From: an uncultured Gemmatimonadaceae bacterium
GTDB lineage: Bacteria > Gemmatimonadota > Gemmatimonadetes > Gemmatimonadales > Gemmatimonadaceae
Assembly: GCA_963781585.1 (NCBI GenBank)
Contig: CAWAGQ010000004.1
Coordinates: forward strand, 640,001 to 704,000
DNA: 64,000 nucleotides
Reading direction: 5' to 3'
Under the pieces are notes generated by a model that was given only the letters and a program-made list of their open reading frames with translations, was not told the origin of the DNA and did no database searches. Below are positions 16,482 to 32,691 of this stretch, piece after piece (position 1 is the first letter of the stretch; each line of letters begins with the position of its first letter). Both the position numbers and the translations under genes were made by a program.

Positions 16482-16567
16482 CCTTCCGTTAAAGGGCAAC
16501 CCGTCCGCGAGGACGGTGCGCAAAGCGCGGAGTCTCATCCCCGAGACGGTCCCGCTACCGACGAAGG
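16482..16567 (+). ncRNA. cyclic di-GMP-I (GEMM-I) riboswitch
   Basis: AAAGGGCAAC-CCGTCC-GCGA-GGACGG-TGCGCAAAGC-GCGG...CCCGC-TACCG, closed by CCTTCCGT/ACGAAGG; matches GEMM-I layout (P2 GNRA loop, CGCAAAGC junction, UACCG); ends 54 nt before the next ATG. Confidence 0.8.
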
Positions 16568-17733: not shown

Positions 17734-17789
17734 TGCCCAGGACGAGACTCGAACTCGTAAGGGCCGAAGCCCGGCGGATTTTGAGTCCG
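17734..17789 (-). repeat. att site: displaced 3' part of tRNA-Leu
   Basis: TGCCCAGGACGAGACTCGAACTCGTAAGGGCCGAAGCCCGGCGGATTTTGAGTCCG, identical to 32608-32663. Confidence 0.97.
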
Positions 17790-17901: not shown

Positions 17902-17934
17902 GTTCTAGCACAGTTCTAGCACAGTTCTAGCACA
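17902..17934 (+). repeat. three tandem 11-bp repeats GTTCTAGCACA, probable integrase arm-type sites
   Basis: Exact 3x repeat ~110 bp inside the att site; same motif 2x at 32522-32542 near the other end. Confidence 0.8.
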
Positions 17935-17951
17935 ATCAACCAGGAAGGCCA

Positions 17952-18977
17952 GTGCACACGACACCTGATCTGGAGCTGTTGCGCTCTGTTGGAAGCGGCC
18001 AAGTCTGGGCCATCGACCCCGATCGGTTGGAGGCCGTGCTCGGCCTTGCCACGCTCCGCGGTGCGCAGGCCGGACCGGAGCGCCGAGGCGTGTTGGCCCC
18101 GCGCGCTCCGCTCGTTACGGGCGGCGTCGCCGTGCTGCCGATGCATGGCATCCTCGTGCATCGCGCGTCGCCGCTCGCGAACCCGCTCGGTGCGGTGACA
18201 TCCACCGAAGCGGTGGGCCGGTCGTTGGACGACCTGCTCTCCCACGGGACGGAGACCATTGTGCTGGAGGTGGACTCGCCCGGCGGGGAATACGACGGCG
18301 TTCCAGAACTTGCGGACAAGGTATTTCACGCGCGGAGCCGGGCGCGCATCATCGCCGTGGCGGATAGCCTGGCGACGGCTGGCGCGTACGTCGTGGCTGC
18401 GGCGGCTGGTGAACTGGTGGTGAGTCCGTCGGCGGTCGTGGGCGGGCTCGGCGTCTTCACCATGCACGATGACTTCTCGGCGATGTTCGAACGGGTCGGG
18501 CTCACACGGACGGTGGTGCGGGCGCCAGCCTCCAAGGCCGAAGGCGCGGGGAATCTCCCGCTCAGCGCGGCGGCCCGCACGGCGCTCCGGGCGACCGTGC
18601 AGACGGTGTACGCGACATTAGTGGAGTCCGTGGCGCGCGGCCGGGCCGTCACGCCCGCAAGGGTTCGCGACGGGTTCGGCCAGGGGCGTACGGTCATGTC
18701 AGAGCGCGCCGTGCGAGAGGGCATGGCCGATCGCGTGGCCACGCTCGAAAGCGTCGTGCGCGCGTATCAGCGGAGCGCGCCGCCTCTTGGCCGGAACGCC
18801 TTCCGGGCGCCCGCGGAGTCCCCGCCGTTAGATGCTGATGCGCCTGGCGCATGGATCCGCTGCGATGCCGACGACGCCCCTGATCCATTTGCGGTAGAGT
18901 GGGATCGGTTCTATCGGCCGCGCGACGGAGGGAACGCCGCGGTACTTCGTCGGCGGCTCGAGTTGGAAACCGACTGA
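17952..18977 (+). CDS. S49-family (SppA/phage head protease-like) protein, predicted catalytically inactive
   Basis: WAI, GVAVLPMHGIL, LEVDSPGG, SKAEG, VARGR, FGQGR, GMADRVATLE; the ASAAY and GSIGV motifs read TAGAY and GGLGV. Confidence 0.85.
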   Translation: MHTTPDLELLRSVGSGQVWAIDPDRLEAVLGLATLRGAQAGPERRGVLAPRAPLVTGGVAVLPMHGILVHRASPLANPLGAVTSTEAVGRSLDDLLSHGTETIVLEVDSPGGEYDGVPELADKVFHARSRARIIAVADSLATAGAYVVAAAAGELVVSPSAVVGGLGVFTMHDDFSAMFERVGLTRTVVRAPASKAEGAGNLPLSAAARTALRATVQTVYATLVESVARGRAVTPARVRDGFGQGRTVMSERAVREGMADRVATLESVVRAYQRSAPPLGRNAFRAPAESPPLDADAPGAWIRCDADDAPDPFAVEWDRFYRPRDGGNAAVLRRRLELETD

Positions 18978-19032: not shown

Positions 19033-19140
19033 AGGGCACAGAAAGGGCACAGTCATCCAGGAGGGCCATGTGCACATGACACGCGATTTCGAGCTGTTGC
19101 GCTGCGTCGGGACGCGGCCAAGCCTGGGCGATCGACACCA
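19033..19140 (+). pseudogene. degenerate second copy of element-end repeats plus the 5' end of an S49-like gene
   Basis: AGGGCACAG x2 at 11-bp period, then CATCCAGGAGGGCCATGTGCACATGACACGCGATTTCGAGCTGTTGCGCTG..., which aligns with 17936-18020 and carries a frameshift. Confidence 0.7.
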
Positions 19141-21559: not shown

Positions 21560-22291
21560 TTACGCGGTCACCGATTCGGTGTCGTGAGACCGCCGCTCTG
21601 ATGGAGGGTCGGCTTGCCAGCGTTCCTGCCATGCGCGGAGCATCTCCTCTAGGAACGCCGTCGCCCGGTGCCGAAATACCGAGTTGAAAGACGCTTCAAG
21701 CTCAATTTGTTGTTCTTGCTGCGTGAGCGTTAGCCCAACGTCCCTCTGCTCGAGACGCCGCACGATTTTTCTGCGATTCTCTCGCACCTCGCCGCGAGCA
21801 TGGATGAGGAGATTTCGAACTTCTCCGTACTCCAATAGCTCGTTCCACTGCGGCTCGGCTGGAGACGCGAGCGCGGCTACCTTGGTGAGGAATGTTCTCG
21901 CTTGGCGGATGCCAGTTCCACGCAGGTCCGTTCGCGCGACGCGCTGCGGCGCAAAGTAATGAACCAGGTCGCAAGTTCGAATCAGGCCGTGCTCCAACGT
22001 GCCGTAGGCCATGAGGAAGAGCGCGGCACGCTGGATCTGCGGGAAAGCCCAATCTGCCATCCCGTGTTCCAGTAAGAGCTCCGTGTATTCGCTCGCCGAC
22101 CGCTTCGTGCCCTCCACGAGGGCAGCCCGCGCCGTAGCAGAAGCGTTGTTCATGGCGACTTCCGACAGCTCGTGCAACCGCTGGACGTGGTACAGGCGCT
22201 CAAGCGTGGTCGATATTGCGAGCACGCCGTAGTCGCGAACGAGTTGAAAAGGTGCGCGCGATTTAGCAGGCGGTCGCTGCTCGGGGGTCAT
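21560..22291 (-). CDS. HEPN-like domain protein, putative RNase/defence effector
   Basis: All-helical character; YGTLEHGL...C and the RxxxxH motif VRNLLIHARG; ATGA-coupled to the XRE gene. Confidence 0.65.
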   Translation of the reverse strand: MTPEQRPPAKSRAPFQLVRDYGVLAISTTLERLYHVQRLHELSEVAMNNASATARAALVEGTKRSASEYTELLLEHGMADWAFPQIQRAALFLMAYGTLEHGLIRTCDLVHYFAPQRVARTDLRGTGIRQARTFLTKVAALASPAEPQWNELLEYGEVRNLLIHARGEVRENRRKIVRRLEQRDVGLTLTQQEQQIELEASFNSVFRHRATAFLEEMLRAWQERWQADPPSERRSHDTESVTA

Positions 22292-22512
22292 CTCCCCCGC
22301 TTCCGCTTCCCATCGGTGGCGAGCAGTTCGCCGGGCTGAACGCCCAGGGCCGCGGCGAGGCGTTCCAGCACGTCGAGATCGATCCGGGACGTCGCGCCGC
22401 GCTCAATCTGAGAGATGGTGGCCTGGCGGACGCCGGCGAGCTCCGCGAGCGCCTCCTGCGTGAGGCCGCGCGCCGCGCGAAGATCCCGAAGCCGGAACCG
22501 GACCGGTGACAT
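22288..22512 (-). CDS. XRE-family HTH transcriptional regulator
   Basis: RLRDLRAARGLTQEALAELAGVRQATISQIERG...LERLAAALGVQPGELL. Confidence 0.92.
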   Translation of the reverse strand: MSPVRFRLRDLRAARGLTQEALAELAGVRQATISQIERGATSRIDLDVLERLAAALGVQPGELLATDGKRKRGR

Positions 22513-22519
22513 GCCGGCC

Positions 22520-22569
22520 AATATACGCTGAGGCGGATATTGACGGCAATACGCCCTGGCGTATATCCT
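22520..22569. promoter_or_regulatory. divergent overlapping promoters with two related palindromic operators
   Basis: O1 AATATACGC-TGAG-GCGGATATT (22520-22541); O2 ATACGCC-CT-GGCGTAT (22549-22564); + strand TTGACG-N18-TATCCT; - strand TTGCCG-N18-TATATT ending 7 nt before the XRE ATG. Confidence 0.65.
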
Positions 22570-22601
22570 TCAGGCACCACACTTATCATGGAGGCGAGAC
22601 C

Positions 22602-22883
22602 ATGCCAGCACGGATGACCGCGAACACGATACCCACGCCGGGACCGAGCGCGGCGTTTCTCGAAGGGCTGAGGCTCATCGAGACGATCTACAAGGAGTAT
22701 GGCCGTGCGTGGATCGCGCGGGAGATCGGCACGAAGGCCAGCGTCATCGCGGACTGGTACGCCGGGAAGCGGACGCCACTACCGAAACACGTTGACGGTC
22801 TGCTGGACCTAATGCTTTCCGCGTACCCATCAGGCTCCCGGCGGGCGGAAGAGTGCATTGCCGCCGCCCGGGAGTCGGGTTGA
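22602..22883 (+). CDS. Cro-like HTH protein
   Basis: GGAGG RBS; YGRAWIAREIGTKASVIADWYAGKRTP HTH pattern; divergent from the XRE gene. Confidence 0.65.
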   Translation: MPARMTANTIPTPGPSAAFLEGLRLIETIYKEYGRAWIAREIGTKASVIADWYAGKRTPLPKHVDGLLDLMLSAYPSGSRRAEECIAAARESG

Positions 22884-23097
22884 CAGCATCGGGAATCCGG
22901 TGAGGGGATGGATCGAGCGCCGAGGGCGTTCGCGCTCTGCGCCGTCGGTAGGTTCTTGCTGATCCGGGCGGCGCTCCGGATTATACAGACCGGTGCGAAA
23001 CCATTCTTGCAGGTCGGCGCGAAGGCGTTGCGCCGATCTGCACGCACGCTATAAGGCTGGTCGGCCGACAGGTTTCCGGACGAACGATTCAAAGTAT

Positions 23098-23104
23098 GTT
23101 ATGC
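23098..23104 (+). other. integron core site GTTATGC starting cassette 1 (attI-like position)
   Basis: GTTATGCGG is the reverse complement of CCGCATAAC at the cassette end; no attC hairpin upstream of it. Confidence 0.7.
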
Positions 23105-23129
23105 GGACTGAGTAAGGACGAAGACCACG

Positions 23130-24002
23130 ATGACCTCACTGAAGTACTCGAAGCCGGAACGTATCTGGTTGAAGGACCATCCTGATTTGGATGAGCGCTG
23201 GCTTCAGGACCGGATCGGTGAGGATCCGGCACTCCTCGGCCTTGGAGACTTGGTCCTGAAGGATCGAGAGCGACCGCAGCCTCGAGCTGGGCGGCTCGAC
23301 CTGCTACTTCAAGATGCGGAGACCAACAAGCGCTACGAGGTCGAGGTGCAGCTCGGCAAGACCGATGAGGCGCACATCATCCGCACCATCGAGTACTGGG
23401 ACATCGAGCGGAAACGATATCCGCAATATGACCACACGGCGGTGATCGTCGCCGAGGATATTACCGGCCGTTTCCTTAACGTCATCAGCCTATTCAACGG
23501 TTCCATTCCCCTTGTCGCCATTCAGATGAGCGCGGTCCGGCTCGGCGATTCTGTATCGTTGATCTGTTCGAAGGTTCTCGACGAGATGCGCCTTGGCCTC
23601 GTGGACGAGGACGAGGAAGTCCAGGCAGCAGCGGACCGGTCGTATTGGGAGGCTCGAGCAAGCAAACACACCCTGGCGATGGCGGACGAAATGCTCGAAG
23701 TGGTTCGTGCTTTCGATCCGCAGCTCGAGCTCAAGTACAACAAGTTCTATATCGGCCTGGCCAAGGGTGGTCAGCCAAACAACTTTGTCATCTTCCGTCC
23801 GAAGAAGGACTGGCTTCGGCTTGAAGTGCGCCTCGACCGCTCAGACGAGACGCAAGCACAGCTCGATGGATCGGGTCTCGACGTCATGGACTACGATTCC
23901 CGATGGGGGCGGTACAGAATCCGCCTCGCCAAGGGCGACACTACGAAGCACAGGGATTTCCTGGCGGCGCTCATGACGAAGGCATTCGCAGGGACCGCAT
24001 AA
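23130..24002 (+). CDS. NucS/PD-(D/E)xK-like nuclease with DUF5655-like C-terminal domain (integron cassette 1)
   Basis: ERWLQDRI...GRLDLL...YEVEVQLGKTDEAHIIRTIEYW; C-terminal KYNKFYIGL...NFVIFRP; stop codon lies inside the attC R'' box. Confidence 0.75.
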   Translation: MTSLKYSKPERIWLKDHPDLDERWLQDRIGEDPALLGLGDLVLKDRERPQPRAGRLDLLLQDAETNKRYEVEVQLGKTDEAHIIRTIEYWDIERKRYPQYDHTAVIVAEDITGRFLNVISLFNGSIPLVAIQMSAVRLGDSVSLICSKVLDEMRLGLVDEDEEVQAAADRSYWEARASKHTLAMADEMLEVVRAFDPQLELKYNKFYIGLAKGGQPNNFVIFRPKKDWLRLEVRLDRSDETQAQLDGSGLDVMDYDSRWGRYRIRLAKGDTTKHRDFLAALMTKAFAGTA

Positions 24003-24072
24003 CAAGCGTTTGCAGCCGACGGCGGCGTGTGAAATCGTTTGGTGCCGCCGCGGCTGAAACACAACGTTAGGC
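23997..24072 (+). other. attC recombination site (76 bp)
   Basis: GCATAAC-AAGCG-TTT(G)CAGCCG(A)CGGCGGC-loop-GCCGCCGCGGCTGAAA-CACAAC-GTTAGGC: R''/R' boxes, paired L arms, two extrahelical bases. Confidence 0.9.
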
Positions 24073-24096
24073 CGAAAACGCAAAGGGGAGGACTGA

Positions 24097-24759
24097 ATGG
24101 CTTGGTGGATGTGGATCCTCCTGGTGCTCGCCGGCTTCGGAGTGTTGGTGACCCTTGGCAAGCGGCGCCGCTTTCGCCTTCGGGCGACCATTCTCGTGCC
24201 AGAGCAGGGAGCACCAGAAGTCCACATCTCACCTGCGGCCCCTGAAGCTGATGACTTATGCTTGCTAGTGCTCTGTTACGCTGCCAAGATCCGCTGGGTT
24301 ATCCTCAGTGAACCCGTAGTTGTTCAAGAATTATTCGACGAACTCTGTGGCGAGGCGATCGACTCGTGGAGCGAAAGCGGCGGCGATTTGATCGACCGCA
24401 TGCCGTCGGCGCGTGGACTACGTGCGGCTCAAGACTTGCCCCGCGCCGTCCCCGGAGGAGAGCGATTCCAGATTGATCTCTTTCGGACGCAGTATACCAG
24501 CCTCCAGAACCACGCGTACGTCGTCAACACGCTTCCGATGCCGGGCTTGGCCCCGAACCTTCCTTGGAGTTGGCTGCTCATCGCAAATCACGTTGCGTCT
24601 CGGCTGCACTCGCATGATTCGGAGAGACTGCGCGAAGCACTGGCGAGCTGGTGTGACAGCGTCCACGGGGAGAGCGGCGAGCAATCAGTCGCAAGCCTCA
24701 AGAGGCTCTTCGCACTGAGCTTGGCCAGCCTCGCATCGGTACAGGCCGTGCGCGAATGA
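24097..24759 (+). CDS. hypothetical protein with N-terminal membrane anchor (integron cassette 2)
   Basis: GGAGG RBS just after attC; MAWWMWILLVLAGFGVLVTLGKRRR; bracketed by GTTAGGCCGAAAACG and CGTTTCGGCCTAAC. Confidence 0.7.
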   Translation: MAWWMWILLVLAGFGVLVTLGKRRRFRLRATILVPEQGAPEVHISPAAPEADDLCLLVLCYAAKIRWVILSEPVVVQELFDELCGEAIDSWSESGGDLIDRMPSARGLRAAQDLPRAVPGGERFQIDLFRTQYTSLQNHAYVVNTLPMPGLAPNLPWSWLLIANHVASRLHSHDSERLREALASWCDSVHGESGEQSVASLKRLFALSLASLASVQAVRE

Positions 24760-24774
24760 GTCGTAGCCGTTTCG

Positions 24775-24800
24775 GCCTAACAACGTTTGCTGCTGGCAGC
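24775..24800 (+). other. truncated attC (R'' and start of L'' only)
   Basis: GCCTAAC-AACG-TTTGCTGCTGG; complementary to the start of cassette 2; no matching L'/R' found downstream. Confidence 0.55.
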
Positions 24801-24983
24801 CGGAGCTGACCTGCTCGGACGTCCGAATCTGCCCGCCACGCGGCTCGAACGCGCGAGTTCGGGTACGACGCGGGCGACTCGTGGAAAAAGGGCACGCCCT
24901 ATGACCATCGTCGGGATGAGGGCGAGGCTGGCGACGGAGCGACTGTCGCCTAACGGTTTCGTCACGCCATTTCGCTGTTGAAG

Positions 24984-25012
24984 GCCCGGCTCAATGGCCG
25001 GGCTTTTTGTTT
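24984..25012 (+). terminator. intrinsic terminator closing the cassette region
   Basis: GCCCGGC-TCAATG-GCCGGGC-TTTTTGTTT. Confidence 0.85.
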
Positions 25013-25188
25013 GCCTGTCCGACTTCGGCGGTCGATTCCAGCACCCGCCGAGCAGGAAGCGCGGGAACGTGAAAAGACGAGCAATGCGAGTAGGGCACTA
25101 ATGCCCGACTCGGACAAACGCCGCGCCCGCGACGATGCGGCGAAGCTGGTTGGCGTCTCCCCGCGCTACGTGCAGGACGCGAAGGCGA

Positions 25189-26344: not shown

Positions 26345-26826
26345 ACCGGACGTACCATGCGTGCCCCGAAGCTCTAAAGGCGAAGCGCCCCAGCCGGTAT
26401 GTGCAAGGTGTCCGCGTCGCCATCGACGATCTCGACGCCCGGCTGCGGCACATCGAGGGCGAGGTCTGCACGCGCGCCAGGGTGCGTGCAGTGGCAAACG
26501 TGACGAACGCGCACGCGGTGTCTCTCCTCCGCAGATGAACAACCTGCGCGTGGCGGACGCTCTGATCCGGCGCGGCGTCCCGACCGCGCCCGTGTCGGCG
26601 GTCGATAAGACACCGCTCGCCCAGCTTTTCGCGGATGATTCCGCGCGGCGCACTCCGGGGGGTCAGTCGGGACGGCCGCTACTACGTCGTCACGGGAACG
26701 GATGGCAGGGACTTGCGTGCGGTCGGCGGCAAACGTGACCGTCGCTGATACTGATGCACGTCCACCAAAAACAGGCGCCCCGCGGTCACGAGCCGCGAGG
26801 CGCTATGCCCCAACCTTCTCACCAGG

Positions 26827-27141
26827 ATGGAGCTTATGGCGAAGCTACGTAGTCGTTATGGGGTGCGCCAGCGCCCGGACCCTGCGGTCTCGCATCCTGC
26901 AATGCGCTCGCTCGGCGCGATCATGCTCGACGAGCATGATCGACGTCTGCTCGCGTGTTCGCTCCAAGCCTACGACCGCGCGTGGCGCGAACTGCCATTC
27001 AGCAAAGCGCGGTGTGCCACGGAAGTCCGCGCGGCTGTCACGCGCATGATCGCGCGCCTTCGCGGTGCTGACAAATTCATCCCCGCGGCCGAACAGGTCG
27101 ACGAACAGGTCGACGCTGCGATTGCGGCGCTGGGCGAGTAA
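26827..27141 (+). CDS. hypothetical protein
   Basis: 104-aa ORF in the rightward operon, ending 3 nt before the helicase start. Confidence 0.45.
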   Translation: MELMAKLRSRYGVRQRPDPAVSHPAMRSLGAIMLDEHDRRLLACSLQAYDRAWRELPFSKARCATEVRAAVTRMIARLRGADKFIPAAEQVDEQVDAAIAALGE

Positions 27142-27144
27142 CCG

Positions 27145-28452
27145 GTGCAATCTCGCGTCGATGCGTACGAGCCGCAGAATGACGAAGAGCTCGAGGACGT
27201 CCTCGGGTCGCCAGAGGGGAACGGCACGAAACCGCATCCGGCGAATGAGCCCGGACTCCCTTCCTTCGTGCGACTGTCCGAGGTGGCGCCTGACATCGCG
27301 ATCGAGTGGGACGCCGAGGACCTCTTTGTGCACGGAGAACCTGCGGTTCTGGCCGGGAGAGGGGCCACGTACAAGACGTCGACGATCCTCGCGATGGCCG
27401 GCGCCGTCGCGACGGGACATCGCGTCTTCGGGCGGTTCCATGTGCCCACGCCTGGTCCGTTCTGCTACGTCTCAGGCGAGGATCCGCCCGAGGTGATCCG
27501 CAACCGCCTCGAGGCCATTTGCCACGGCCACGGCTATAACGTGGCCGACGCGTTCGAGAACGTGCACGTGCTCGCGCTCTCCGGCATCGACCTCGCGGAA
27601 GAACGTTGGCGTCGACACGTCAGGGATGAAGTGCGCGCCATCGGCGCGCGGATGCTCGTGCTGGATCCGCTCGCCGAAGTGGACAGCGGCGAGGAGAACA
27701 ACAACGACGACCGCCGGCGCCTCGTACGCGCGATCCGGTGGTTCGGCGCGGAGACCGACGCGACGGTCCTGGTGGCGCACCACTTCCGCAAGAGCGCCGA
27801 GGGCGGAGACAAAGGTGATCTGATCCGGGGCGGTAATGCGCTCCCAAACGCGTCCCGGCAGACGTACGCCTTGGAACGCCTCGACGACGGGAGCGTGACC
27901 GTGGAGTGCGTGAAGTTCTCGCGGGCTGCGCGGCGACCACCCTTCGTGCTGCGGCCGATCATAGAGACCAAACCGGGCAACGAAGCGGTCTGGCTGAGTG
28001 CCCGGTTTGAATACGCCACGGCCTCCGAGGCCAAGTTCGACCGGGCGGAGGAATTCGTGCTCGAGCGCCTCACGCTCGGGGTCCGATTGAGCACCTCAGA
28101 CCTGAAGCTCGAGGCCAAGGGGACCGGTGTTTCCGGTGCCGATATTGCCCGGGCGCTGCGGGTGCTCGAGATGCGCCGGCTCATCAGTTTCGAGGCCGGG
28201 GAGAAGAATGCGAAGCTCTGGGGTCTGGTTGCCGGGCAAGCTGGGCAACCAGAGAATGTGCTTGCCCGGCAAACAGGCAGCTTGCCGGGCAACCAGAATA
28301 AGGCCGGTTCTGCTTGCCTTGCCCCCTTTAGGGGGGCAAGCAGAAACCGGCCGCCTAACGAGCACCGGCAACCAGACCCGCCCCCGAACCACGGCGAGGC
28401 CTGGGAGCCGCCTCTCGACGATTCGCAGGCAGCGATGTGGGGCGGCGCATGA
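27145..28452 (+). CDS. AAA_25/RepA-like helicase
   Basis: Walker A-like LAGRGATYKTS, YVSGED, Walker B MLVLDPL, VAHHFRK, IRGGNAL; wHTH-like C-terminal part. Confidence 0.85.
   Translation: MQSRVDAYEPQNDEELEDVLGSPEGNGTKPHPANEPGLPSFVRLSEVAPDIAIEWDAEDLFVHGEPAVLAGRGATYKTSTILAMAGAVATGHRVFGRFHVPTPGPFCYVSGEDPPEVIRNRLEAICHGHGYNVADAFENVHVLALSGIDLAEERWRRHVRDEVRAIGARMLVLDPLAEVDSGEENNNDDRRRLVRAIRWFGAETDATVLVAHHFRKSAEGGDKGDLIRGGNALPNASRQTYALERLDDGSVTVECVKFSRAARRPPFVLRPIIETKPGNEAVWLSARFEYATASEAKFDRAEEFVLERLTLGVRLSTSDLKLEAKGTGVSGADIARALRVLEMRRLISFEAGEKNAKLWGLVAGQAGQPENVLARQTGSLPGNQNKAGSACLAPFRGASRNRPPNEHRQPDPPPNHGEAWEPPLDDSQAAMWGGA
28229..28351. repeat. iteron-like TTGCC(G/C)GGCAA cluster with a large inverted repeat, putative replication origin
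   Basis: Copies at 28229, 28262 and 28282; GCCGGTTCTGCTTGCC...TTGCCCCC-TTTA-GGGGGGCAAGCAGAAACCGGC. Confidence 0.55.
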
Positions 28453-29973: not shown

Positions 29974-30168
29974 GGCCGCGCGTCCGGCAGGCCGGAGTCG
30001 GCCTTCGCAGCGCATGGCGCGGGAACTCGCAGACCCACCCCGGGGTCGGTCCGATCTCTGTGATCGGCCGCGTTAGGGACCGTGGCCAGCCCTCAGCGCG
30101 CCCTGGGCAGGTTTTGCGAGCCGAAAGTGCCCGGCAGGACCTTCGCAGAACGAGCGGAGGCTGAAACG

Positions 30169-30657
30169 ATGCGTGGTCCGCCGAAGAAACCGACCGCCGT
30201 CAAGCTGATCGAGGGCACCTTCCGCCGGGATCGTGCGCCGAGGCGCGAGCCGCGTCCGGTGCCAGGCGTTCCCCGGCGCCCCCGCTGGCTCGATGCCCGC
30301 GGCGCGACGAAATGGCGACAGCTCGTGGCCATCCTCGGTCCAATGCACGTGGTGACCGTGGCCGACGGCGATGCGCTAGCGCTGGCTGCGGAGGCGTTCT
30401 CGCGATTCCTGGCGGCCAGGGATGCGGTCCGACAGTTCGGCACGGTCTACAGTTCGGCGACCCCGGCCGGGGGCACGATCGTCCGGCCCCGTCCGGAGTG
30501 CGCGATGGCGACGAGCACGTGGCGGGACTATCTGCGCGCGCTGCAGGAGTTCGGCCTCACGCCGGCGGCACGCGCCCGGGTGGAAGCGCGAGACGACGGC
30601 GGGAGCGAGACCGACCGGTTCCTGTTCGATGAGTCACGCCGCCGGCGTCGAGCGTAG
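30169..30657 (+). CDS. terS: phage terminase small subunit, P27 family
   Basis: GGAGG RBS; MRGPPKKPTAVKLIEGT, PRWLD...KW, D..ALA...EA, RPRPE, EFGLTPAARAR. Confidence 0.9.
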   Translation: MRGPPKKPTAVKLIEGTFRRDRAPRREPRPVPGVPRRPRWLDARGATKWRQLVAILGPMHVVTVADGDALALAAEAFSRFLAARDAVRQFGTVYSSATPAGGTIVRPRPECAMATSTWRDYLRALQEFGLTPAARARVEARDDGGSETDRFLFDESRRRRRA

Positions 30658-31177: not shown

Positions 31178-31423
31178 ATGAACGCCGTCACTCGCACCAT
31201 GCAGCGGATCCTCGCTGACTCGCCGGTGAGCCTTCGGGAGATTGCCCGGCGGTGCGGGGTGTCGCATGTGCAGCTCGCACGGATCGTGAATGGTGAACGC
31301 AACGCGACGCCGGCCGTGGCCGCCGCAGTGGCGACGGCGCTGGAGACACTCGGGGCCGACTGTACCGCGCGTGCGAAGCGGGTGCGGCGTTCCTTGGCCA
31401 CATCAGGCAAGGGGGAGCGATGA
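31178..31423 (+). CDS. XRE-like HTH protein
   Basis: SLREIARRCGVSHVQLARIVNGERNATP; ATGA-coupled to the integrase. Confidence 0.75.
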   Translation: MNAVTRTMQRILADSPVSLREIARRCGVSHVQLARIVNGERNATPAVAAAVATALETLGADCTARAKRVRRSLATSGKGER

Positions 31424-32520
31424 GAGACGCGACGAAGAAGCGCGCCGAGCGTGGCGCCGGAGGGCTCTACCAGCGCGGCGGTCTGTGGTGGATTCGCTAT
31501 AGCTATCGGGGAAAGCAACTCCGCGAGTCGAGCGGCTCCGACGTGCGGAACGACGCCGTGAAGCTCTTGCGGCGGCGTCTGGCCGAGATGGGATCCGGAA
31601 AGCTCATCGGTCCGGACGCCGAGCGCACGTCGTTCGACGACCTGGCCGACATGGTGATTGCTGACTATCGGCTCAATGGCCGGCGCTCGACTCGACGGGC
31701 CACCGAGGCGCTTGCGCGGCTTCGCGGCTTCTTTGCGTTCGCGCGCGTGCCTGACGTGACGAGCGATCGCATCGCCCGCTACATCACACAACGGCAAGAG
31801 GACAGCGCCGCGGCCGCGACGATCCGATACGAGCTGTCGATGCTCAAGCGCGCCTTCACGCTCGGCATGCGCGCCGGCAAGGCCGCGACGCGCCCCTACA
31901 TCCCCACGGTGGCCGTCGATAACGCTCGCAAGGGATTCTTTGAGCCCGCAGACTTCGAGGCCGTCGAGACGCACTTGCCGGCGCCGCTGCAGCCGCTCAT
32001 GCGCTTCCTCTACCTCACCGGCTGGCGCGCGGGTGAAGCGCTCGGGCTCACCTGGGCGGGCGTTGATTTTTCGGCCGGCGTCTTGCGGCTCGAACCAGGC
32101 GTGACGAAGAATCGTGAGGGGCGGGAGTTTCCCTTTGCGGGCTTCCCTGCCCTGGCCGAGCTCCTCCGCGCACAGCGCGAGCATACGTCGGTGATCGAGC
32201 GGAAGCGACAGCGCATCATCGCGCACGTCTTCCATCGGAACGGCAAGCCGCTCCGGTCGTACAGCGGCGGATGGGACGCGGCGACGAAAGCGGTTGGGCT
32301 CGAGGGCCGGCTCGTGCACGACTTGCGGCGCACGGCGGTGCGGAACCTCGAGCGGGCCGGCGTCTCGCGGTCCGTGGCGATGAAACTGACGGGCCACAAG
32401 ACCGAGGCCGTGTACCGTCGTTATGCGATCACGTCCGCGGCCGATCTCTCCGAAGGCGTCGCGAAACTGGCGACGCTGCACGCGGGGCCAGCGAAGCGCA
32501 CGACGGCCGGCACCCGATGA
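31420..32520 (+). CDS. int: tyrosine integrase
   Basis: Arm-binding N-terminus (GLYQRGGLWWIRYSYRGK); catalytic TGWRAGE, TKN, HDLRR, GHKT, RRY; next to the tRNA att site. Confidence 0.96.
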   Translation: MRDATKKRAERGAGGLYQRGGLWWIRYSYRGKQLRESSGSDVRNDAVKLLRRRLAEMGSGKLIGPDAERTSFDDLADMVIADYRLNGRRSTRRATEALARLRGFFAFARVPDVTSDRIARYITQRQEDSAAAATIRYELSMLKRAFTLGMRAGKAATRPYIPTVAVDNARKGFFEPADFEAVETHLPAPLQPLMRFLYLTGWRAGEALGLTWAGVDFSAGVLRLEPGVTKNREGREFPFAGFPALAELLRAQREHTSVIERKRQRIIAHVFHRNGKPLRSYSGGWDAATKAVGLEGRLVHDLRRTAVRNLERAGVSRSVAMKLTGHKTEAVYRRYAITSAADLSEGVAKLATLHAGPAKRTTAGTR

Positions 32521-32607: not shown

Positions 32608-32691
32608 TGCCCAGGACGAGACTCGAACTCGTAAGGGCCGAAGCCCGGCGGATTTTGAGTCCGCTGCGTCTACCAGTTCCGCCACCCGGGC
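32608..32691 (-). tRNA. tRNA-Leu(CAA); CCA not encoded
   Basis: GCCCGGG TGGCGGAACTGGTAGACGC A GCGGA-CTCAAAA-TCCGC, variable arm GGGC-TTCG-GCCC, T arm ACGAG-TTCGAGT-CTCGT, CCTGGGC-A. Confidence 0.97.

Follow-up and report, generated by a model that had tools for sequence, protein, structure and literature searches.

How does a short array of integron cassettes come to lie inside a putatively mobile island, and can such a site still take up cassettes? The question is raised by a stretch of 64,000 nucleotides (hereafter the window, positions 640001-704000 of contig C4 in genome G000; C-numbers denote contigs of this genome and of G001, a genome from the same genus), in which an original prediction saw a phage satellite with a docking site that borrows the integron integrase (IntI) of its host in trans. 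To our knowledge, there is no good explanation of how cassettes pass from the chromosomal integron of one species to that of another, as cassettes themselves do not replicate.

A comparison of repeats within the window delimits the element as an island of 14.9 kb (~15 kb) enclosed by perfect 56-bp repeats, with the following principal features.

17734-17789, no strand: left attachment repeat, a 56-bp copy of the 3' part of tRNA-Leu (100% direct repeat with 32608-32663).
17952-18977, plus strand: homologue of the S49 head protease (PF01343, E 5e-21; phrog_53).
22288-22521, minus strand: XRE-type HTH regulator (HTH_3, E 2e-18).
27145-28452, plus strand: AAA_25 replication protein of the primase/helicase type (PF13481, E 2e-31; phrog_906).
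30082-30657, plus strand: terminase small subunit (PF05119, E 1e-17; phrog_83).
31420-32520, plus strand: island tyrosine integrase, not an IntI (PF00589, phrog_1; absent from the TIGR02249 matches).
32608-32691, minus strand: tRNA-Leu(CAA), containing the right attachment repeat, 32608-32663 (tRNA call and repeat).

The closest relatives of the island integrase, at 71-78% identity, occur in genomes of Gemmatimonadota, which points to this phylum for the host. Family matches point to two regulators (an HTH_17 gene and the XRE HTH gene), and the scan of 22 island ORFs, many of them without a family, gave no match to capsid, tail or holin proteins. With its integrase and attachment repeats, regulator, primase-replicase and small terminase, the island has four of the five core components that the accessible part of 10.1101/2022.09.14.508007 lists for PICIs. 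It resembles the PICI satellites that this source, as far as its accessible text goes, describes with SatelliteFinder (tRNA integrase, regulators, primase/helicase, small terminase, accessory cargo), but differs from them in its unusual gene order and in having an attI among its cargo. The gene content fits a PICI-like, or satellite-like, element that is predicted to be mobile. In and around the island, we also noted a c-di-GMP-I riboswitch at 16485-16562, 5' of an unknown 290-aa ORF just beyond the island; a duplication of the S49 gene start (17930-18020 and 19047-19139, 82% alike); and a 60-bp gene remnant at 25126-25185 with a 93% match in another element (G001 C25), close to a related HTH gene.

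The integron-derived part of the island comprises these features.

22506-22883, plus strand: island ORF with its stop codon inside the captured piece (no family match).
22873-22951, plus strand: end of the intI reading frame, its last 79 nt, corresponding to the post-catalytic tail and now with an in-frame TGA (4 substitutions relative to the tail of the intact G001 IntI).
22952-23104, plus strand: attI region, with the L box GATTCAA at 23086-23092, a 5-bp spacer and the crossover G|TT at 23098/23099 (homology to G001).
23099-24066, plus strand: cassette 1, 968 bp (end complementarity; also the first cassette in G001 C9).
23997-24072, plus strand: attC1, complete, 76 bp (covariance model, 49.8 bits; bottom-strand hairpin).
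24067-24817, plus strand: cassette 2 with a truncated attC (12-nt end complementarity; left arm only).
24097-24759, plus strand: orphan ORF of 220 aa with a hydrophobic N-terminus (ORF call).
24775-24817, plus strand: left arm of attC2, the right capture junction being close behind (25/26 nt identical to an attC on G000 C2).
24988-25012, plus strand: hairpin and T run resembling an intrinsic terminator (hairpin scan).

The identity of the site at the head of this array is clarified by G001. Window positions 22873-24072 are 97% identical to positions 26392-27588 of G001 C9, directly upstream of which, in the same orientation, lies an intact IntI gene (TIGR02249, 384.7 bits against a cut-off of 265) whose frame extends into the matched stretch. 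The upstream region, which we compared with attI regions beside chromosomal intI genes as had been proposed, thus finds its match in the G001 C9 integron; since the homologous site there stands beside intI at the head of the array, position 23098, previously described as attI-like, is by homology a genuine attI. The accompanying statement that the window contains no intI holds for an intact gene, but overlooked the 79-nt 3' tail at 22873-22951. A long match to the attI stretch was present in one (G001) of the 300 family genomes searched, and attI pattern scans returned 14 matches in metagenome contigs and two in viral contigs, which have no similarity past the motif and are taken as chance matches. 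Over 147 bp, the attI region differs from that of G001 C9 by 11 substitutions and 1 indel, and it is 83% identical to a second copy at G001 C6. The L box, the spacer length and the G|TT are the same in all three copies, the two changes in the island falling in the spacer, and, because the L box and core are unchanged, we infer that the island attI may still be competent.

As stated earlier, no attC precedes the first core site, the attC model having no match before 23098. A strong hairpin at about 23008-23048 (z = -2.53) was considered as an upstream attC and rejected, given no model match and no compensatory changes in G001. The promoter proposed at 23028-23055 (TTGCGC-N16-TATAAG) is present as a string but finds no support: it fails a sigma-70 scan, and neither hexamer is the same in the copies of G001. 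The left capture junction lies at 22873 or just to the left of it; as no empty or alternative island allele was found, both junctions are approximate. The ORF starting at 22506 had no relatives among viral contigs. With intI reduced to a 79-nt tail, the fragment is not a complete integron, and with one complete attC by the model built here it falls below the CALIN default (at least two attC and no intI nearby).

Cassette 1 has the ends that were described for it: the core at 23098 reads GTTATGCGG, and CCGCATAAC at 23995-24003 is exactly its reverse complement over 9 nt. The boxes of attC1 are R'' GCATAAC, L'' TTTGCAGC, L' GCTGAAA and R' GTTAGGC, and the bottom strand (z = -3.16; top strand, z = -1.82) folds into a hairpin with two bulged bases, in agreement with the paired arms and two extrahelical bases reported before. 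A covariance model built here from 14 other attC sites of G000 and G001 (not IntegronFinder's own, and with attC1 and its G001 twin left out) finds 23997-24072 with 49.8 bits and E 8e-13, the second best of its 24 window matches being the reverse strand of attC1 at 14.2 bits; in G000, it yields 25 sites among 150 scored candidates.

Cassette 2 is less complete. Its ends are complementary over 12 nt and its attC is truncated, as previously thought, with the correction that an A is the one difference after these 12 nt. With the model, attC2 scores 8.9 bits (E 3), and cassette 2 has no complete attC; the 43 nt of its left arm are 81% identical to part of an intact attC of locus L213. A full attC2 ending at 24863 was discarded (no hairpin, z = -0.63; 8.9 bits). 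Among 2052 length-matched candidates, the ORF had no relative other than itself; it had no atlas match either, and the search of G001 did not recover cassette 2. The terminator formerly called strong corresponds to a terminator-like hairpin with a T run at 24988-25012; a count of 1 such structure against 2.0 expected in shuffles is, taken by itself, not above chance.

The comparison with G001 also bears on timing. Relative to G001 C9, the upstream stretch 22873-23098 shows 15 substitutions (6.6% of 226 bp), the last ones at 23093 and 23097, and a single indel. Cassette 1 differs by 10 substitutions in 968 bp (six of them synonymous), all confined to a 289-bp patch at 23462-23750, with no differences in 23099-23461 (0/363) or 23751-24066; this gives an upper bound of 0.44% over 679 bp, these identical bases having been picked after the patch was seen. 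The contrast between the upstream stretch and the cassette has a Fisher p of 0.012 on synonymous plus non-coding cassette sites and of 0.11 on synonymous sites alone. Third-position divergence between G000 and G001 amounts to 20-28% in five shared chromosomal genes, 30% in the island integrase and 2.4% in cassette 1, and both attI lineages contain derived changes when polarised by the G001 C6 copy. Read from divergence, this gives three time layers, namely the species split, the attI split and cassette 1. An identity tract starting at the crossover base is the mark of IntI insertion. As the tract begins at precisely this base, an IntI likely placed cassette 1 in one attI site or in both, recently, after the attI copies had split. 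Mixed assembly may contribute to the pattern, because neither genome is flawless: G001 has a completeness of 64%, its copy of cassette 1 contains frameshifts, and G000 is 7% contaminated.

Cassette 1 is by no means restricted to these two places. All 8000 of 8000 scored candidates (hence at least 8000) match it at E <= 1e-20, many with more than 90% identity, and a 41% homologue sits between attC sites in locus L020. In one independent metagenome run (X1), a contig matches cassette 1 from 23098 onward, with 17 differences over 623 bp, and has unrelated sequence to the left of it, so cassette 1 occurs elsewhere with its boundary at G|TT. Four viral homologues (49-61%) had no attC by the model built here. 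Among the matches listed for public sequencing runs, there was one (share 0.06), covering cassette 1 only, with no RNA match and none that included the island.

Where did the fragment come from? The upstream region and cassette 1 match the chromosomal integron of G001 as one block, which argues for a captured fragment rather than a site evolved by the satellite. The original prediction had set against itself the case that the whole block is a single captured chromosomal fragment; this applies to the upstream region and cassette 1 but not to cassette 2, which differs, the second cassette of G001 C9 being a LexA-type HTH gene. An origin from the intact integron of the host (G000 C7) can be put aside, as the region before 23098 has no blastn match elsewhere in G000. 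Vertical origin from G000 C11, the orthologue of the G001 C9 locus, is disfavoured because attI, at 6.6%, has diverged much less than the shared genes, at 20-28%, although constraint on attI could explain part of the difference; this locus (L097, 2340-4873) has lost intI and attI, and contains a transposase element and two attC around one cassette. Capture via an IntI secondary site at 22879 is not favoured either, the identity extending several bases to the left of the GTT there.

Other integron loci in the two genomes provide context. In G001 (64% complete), five intI genes lie above the family cut-off (on C6, C9, C17 and C29), with arrays downstream on the same strand. G001 C6 also has an orphan attI of the same type as that of the island, with intI traces only and a LexA-type cassette first; over 731 bp, this cassette and the second one of C9 are 100% identical, and the orphan attI was loaded recently. 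Three more intI remnants occur in G000, each followed by an attI-like site and cassettes (C2, L012 11808-12360; C7:417k, L096; C13:299k, L013), and orphan attI platforms are common in this genome; the first cassettes at these three platforms have no near-identical copy in G001. Elsewhere in G000, a gene for a 303-aa XerD-like recombinase is present three times with identical scores, each copy adjoining an attC (C7, L009 6354-8476 and 16953-19075; C13:309021-309851), in L009 followed by a 389-aa ORF; these copies are possibly an attC-targeting mobile element. A transposase element also lies at an attC in L012 (13189-14995), with ~100% identical copies at G001 C17 and C26.

The reading that we prefer, with a probability of about 0.8, is that the island carries an integron fragment, likely captured once, and that cassette 1 was likely inserted by an IntI long after the attI copies split. 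Non-IntI recombination would have captured the intI tail, attI, cassettes 1 and 2 and half of an attC from a lineage close to G001; because divergence in the attI region falls well short of that in shared genes, this presumably happened after the split of G000 and G001. IntI would have inserted cassette 1 at the attI crossover long after the copies in the island and in G001 had parted. New loading would depend on an IntI encoded elsewhere in the cell, preferably of the G001 C9 type; in the present host, the site would therefore be dormant or weak, and in a G001-like one active. G000 has a single intact IntI (C7, 434.5 bits), and its use at the island attI is doubtful, because it is 58% identical to the cognate G001 C9 enzyme and an attI is reported to be specific for its own integrase; the accessible part of PMC2095811 describes a strict specificity of IntIs for their attI. 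What survives of the proposed docking site is the likely IntI activity after the attI split; an origin within the satellite gives way to capture, and the 58% identity of the host IntI to the cognate enzyme weakens the role envisaged for it. Loading of cassette 1 in trans while on the satellite is, on the sequence pattern, plausible.

Within this frame, it is about an even bet that an unsampled sister integron already possessed cassette 1 and that the island took up the block once, recently, with no IntI action since. Both ends of the fragment are broken (the intI tail and the half attC), the abundance of cassette 1 would make independent loading of two integrons easy, G000 has no intact IntI of the cognate type (the best being 58% identical), and the strict specificity reported for IntIs (PMC2095811, as far as accessible) points the same way, as do the three other orphan platforms of G000, whose first cassettes are without near-identical counterparts in G001. 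Such a capture must, however, have come very late in the period that followed the attI split (0/679, <=0.44%, versus 6.6%), and its donor integron is unseen.

Somewhat short of even odds is a history with an older capture, in which IntI acting in trans either inserted cassette 1 before cassette 2 on the island or moved it from the island to the G001 integron, most simply in a cell with the cognate IntI. One event would then explain both the near-identical first cassette at the two sites and the identity from the crossover onward. The intact L box, which differs at two of seven positions from the GGTCCAA of the host's own integron (a box also used by a relative of the cognate IntI), agrees with this, as do the recent loading of the same-type orphan attI in G001 and the cassettes that other G000 and G001 arrays have in common at 99.7-99.9% identity. 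So does a sister island in G001 at the same tRNA-Leu, whose integrase is 91% identical and which indicates that the island family lives in both species. Yet no second allele of the island was found, the sister island has neither attI nor attC, the one matching sequencing run covers cassette 1 only, and no strong attC was found on the element side among 86 more integrase-related loci (48 of them with at least 8.4 kb of that side). Among these loci, there was one strong attC on the other side of the integrase, and two weak matches near 20 bits. Five further related elements had no attI or attC in the stretch examined (8 kb only in one case); the related-element sets may overlap, and the shared sequence is mostly the integrase end. 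Since the sister island and the related loci are without it, the attI site is, judging from the sequences compared, not a trait of the island family, and the check proposed earlier, for the same site with different cassettes in related satellites, came out negative. A single attC cassette was seen at L160 10017-10097, 4.5 kb past a related integrase.

It is improbable that homologous recombination evened out cassette 1 between the two places or that the likeness is an assembly artefact. The cassette is a mosaic, given its 289-bp patch with 10 substitutions, six synonymous, and both assemblies are imperfect; on the other hand, the identical tract starts at the crossover base, the flanks differ on both sides in long contigs, and the copies are not identical, unlike the products of mis-assembly. 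Off-target insertion by IntI into a secondary site, without any attI, is acknowledged as a source of CALINs in the accessible part of PMC8618304; here it is refuted by the 226 bp upstream of the crossover, which match an intI tail plus attI region at 93%.

The predicted product of cassette 1 is as follows.

23130-24002, plus strand: 290-aa protein with a predicted NucS/EndoMS-like nuclease domain and a DUF5655 (PF18899, E 2e-4, below the cut-off; DUF5655 atlas clusters).

A structure model of the protein (pLDDT 85) has EndoMS (5gke) as its best fold match (E 1.7e-3, prob 1.0); matches to EndoMS/NucS range from E 1.7e-3 to 2.7e-3, none reaching 1e-3, and a sequence search against PDB with cassette 1 gave no match. 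On this model, the product would be a fusion of a NucS/EndoMS-like nuclease domain with DUF5655. It has weak PADLOC matches to PDC-S11 and PDC-S18 (E about 5e-5 to 7e-5), and we found no paper that combines DUF5655, defence and phage. Defence genes are enriched in integron cassettes, according to the accessible part of 10.1101/2024.07.02.601686, and a putative anti-phage role, to which the weak matches also point, would fit this enrichment.

[quoted passage not shown] Like the CALINs and single attC sites lacking integrase treated in the accessible text of PMC8618304 and PMC11389934, the island has cassettes without a neighbouring intI; it differs from them in retaining an attI and an intI stub, with one complete attC, under the two-site default. 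With its attI in place, it could both take up and release cassettes. With sedentary chromosomal integrons (G001 C9, and G000 C7, where intI is oriented as the array), it has the attC type in common, and with C9 the attI region and the first cassette, whereas the island fragment is without an integrase, cut after two cassettes and carried on an island. The nearest precedent is an attI-headed CALIN reported in the Shewanella prophage M16-3 (Qi et al. 2023, PMC9892861), where, as far as the accessible text goes, cassettes likewise stand behind a real attI, their own intI missing, in an integrated phage-type element. M16-3, however, is a cryptic prophage that also carries a complete integron, whereas the present element is a ~15-kb satellite-like island with no IntI and with its donor integron type identified; neither 'satellite' nor 'PICI' appears as a word in the main text of PMC9892861. 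Within the openly accessible texts and listings that our literature search covered, no report of a satellite-borne attI was found. What is new here is a real attI captured by a satellite-like island, together with a dated hint of later IntI activity.

If the capture was recent and without IntI action since, the locus is a tidy, dated case, of modest interest, in which an island acquired integron DNA. If cassette 1 was loaded on the island, the latter would be a reloadable gene ferry, and we tentatively entertain the notion of a stolen working attI on a phage satellite, loaded and unloaded by the IntIs of successive hosts and moving cassettes between species. With the donor integron, the cognate IntI and the host IntI in hand, an attI on an island that is predicted to be packageable offers a candidate vehicle for such travel that is concrete, small and testable.
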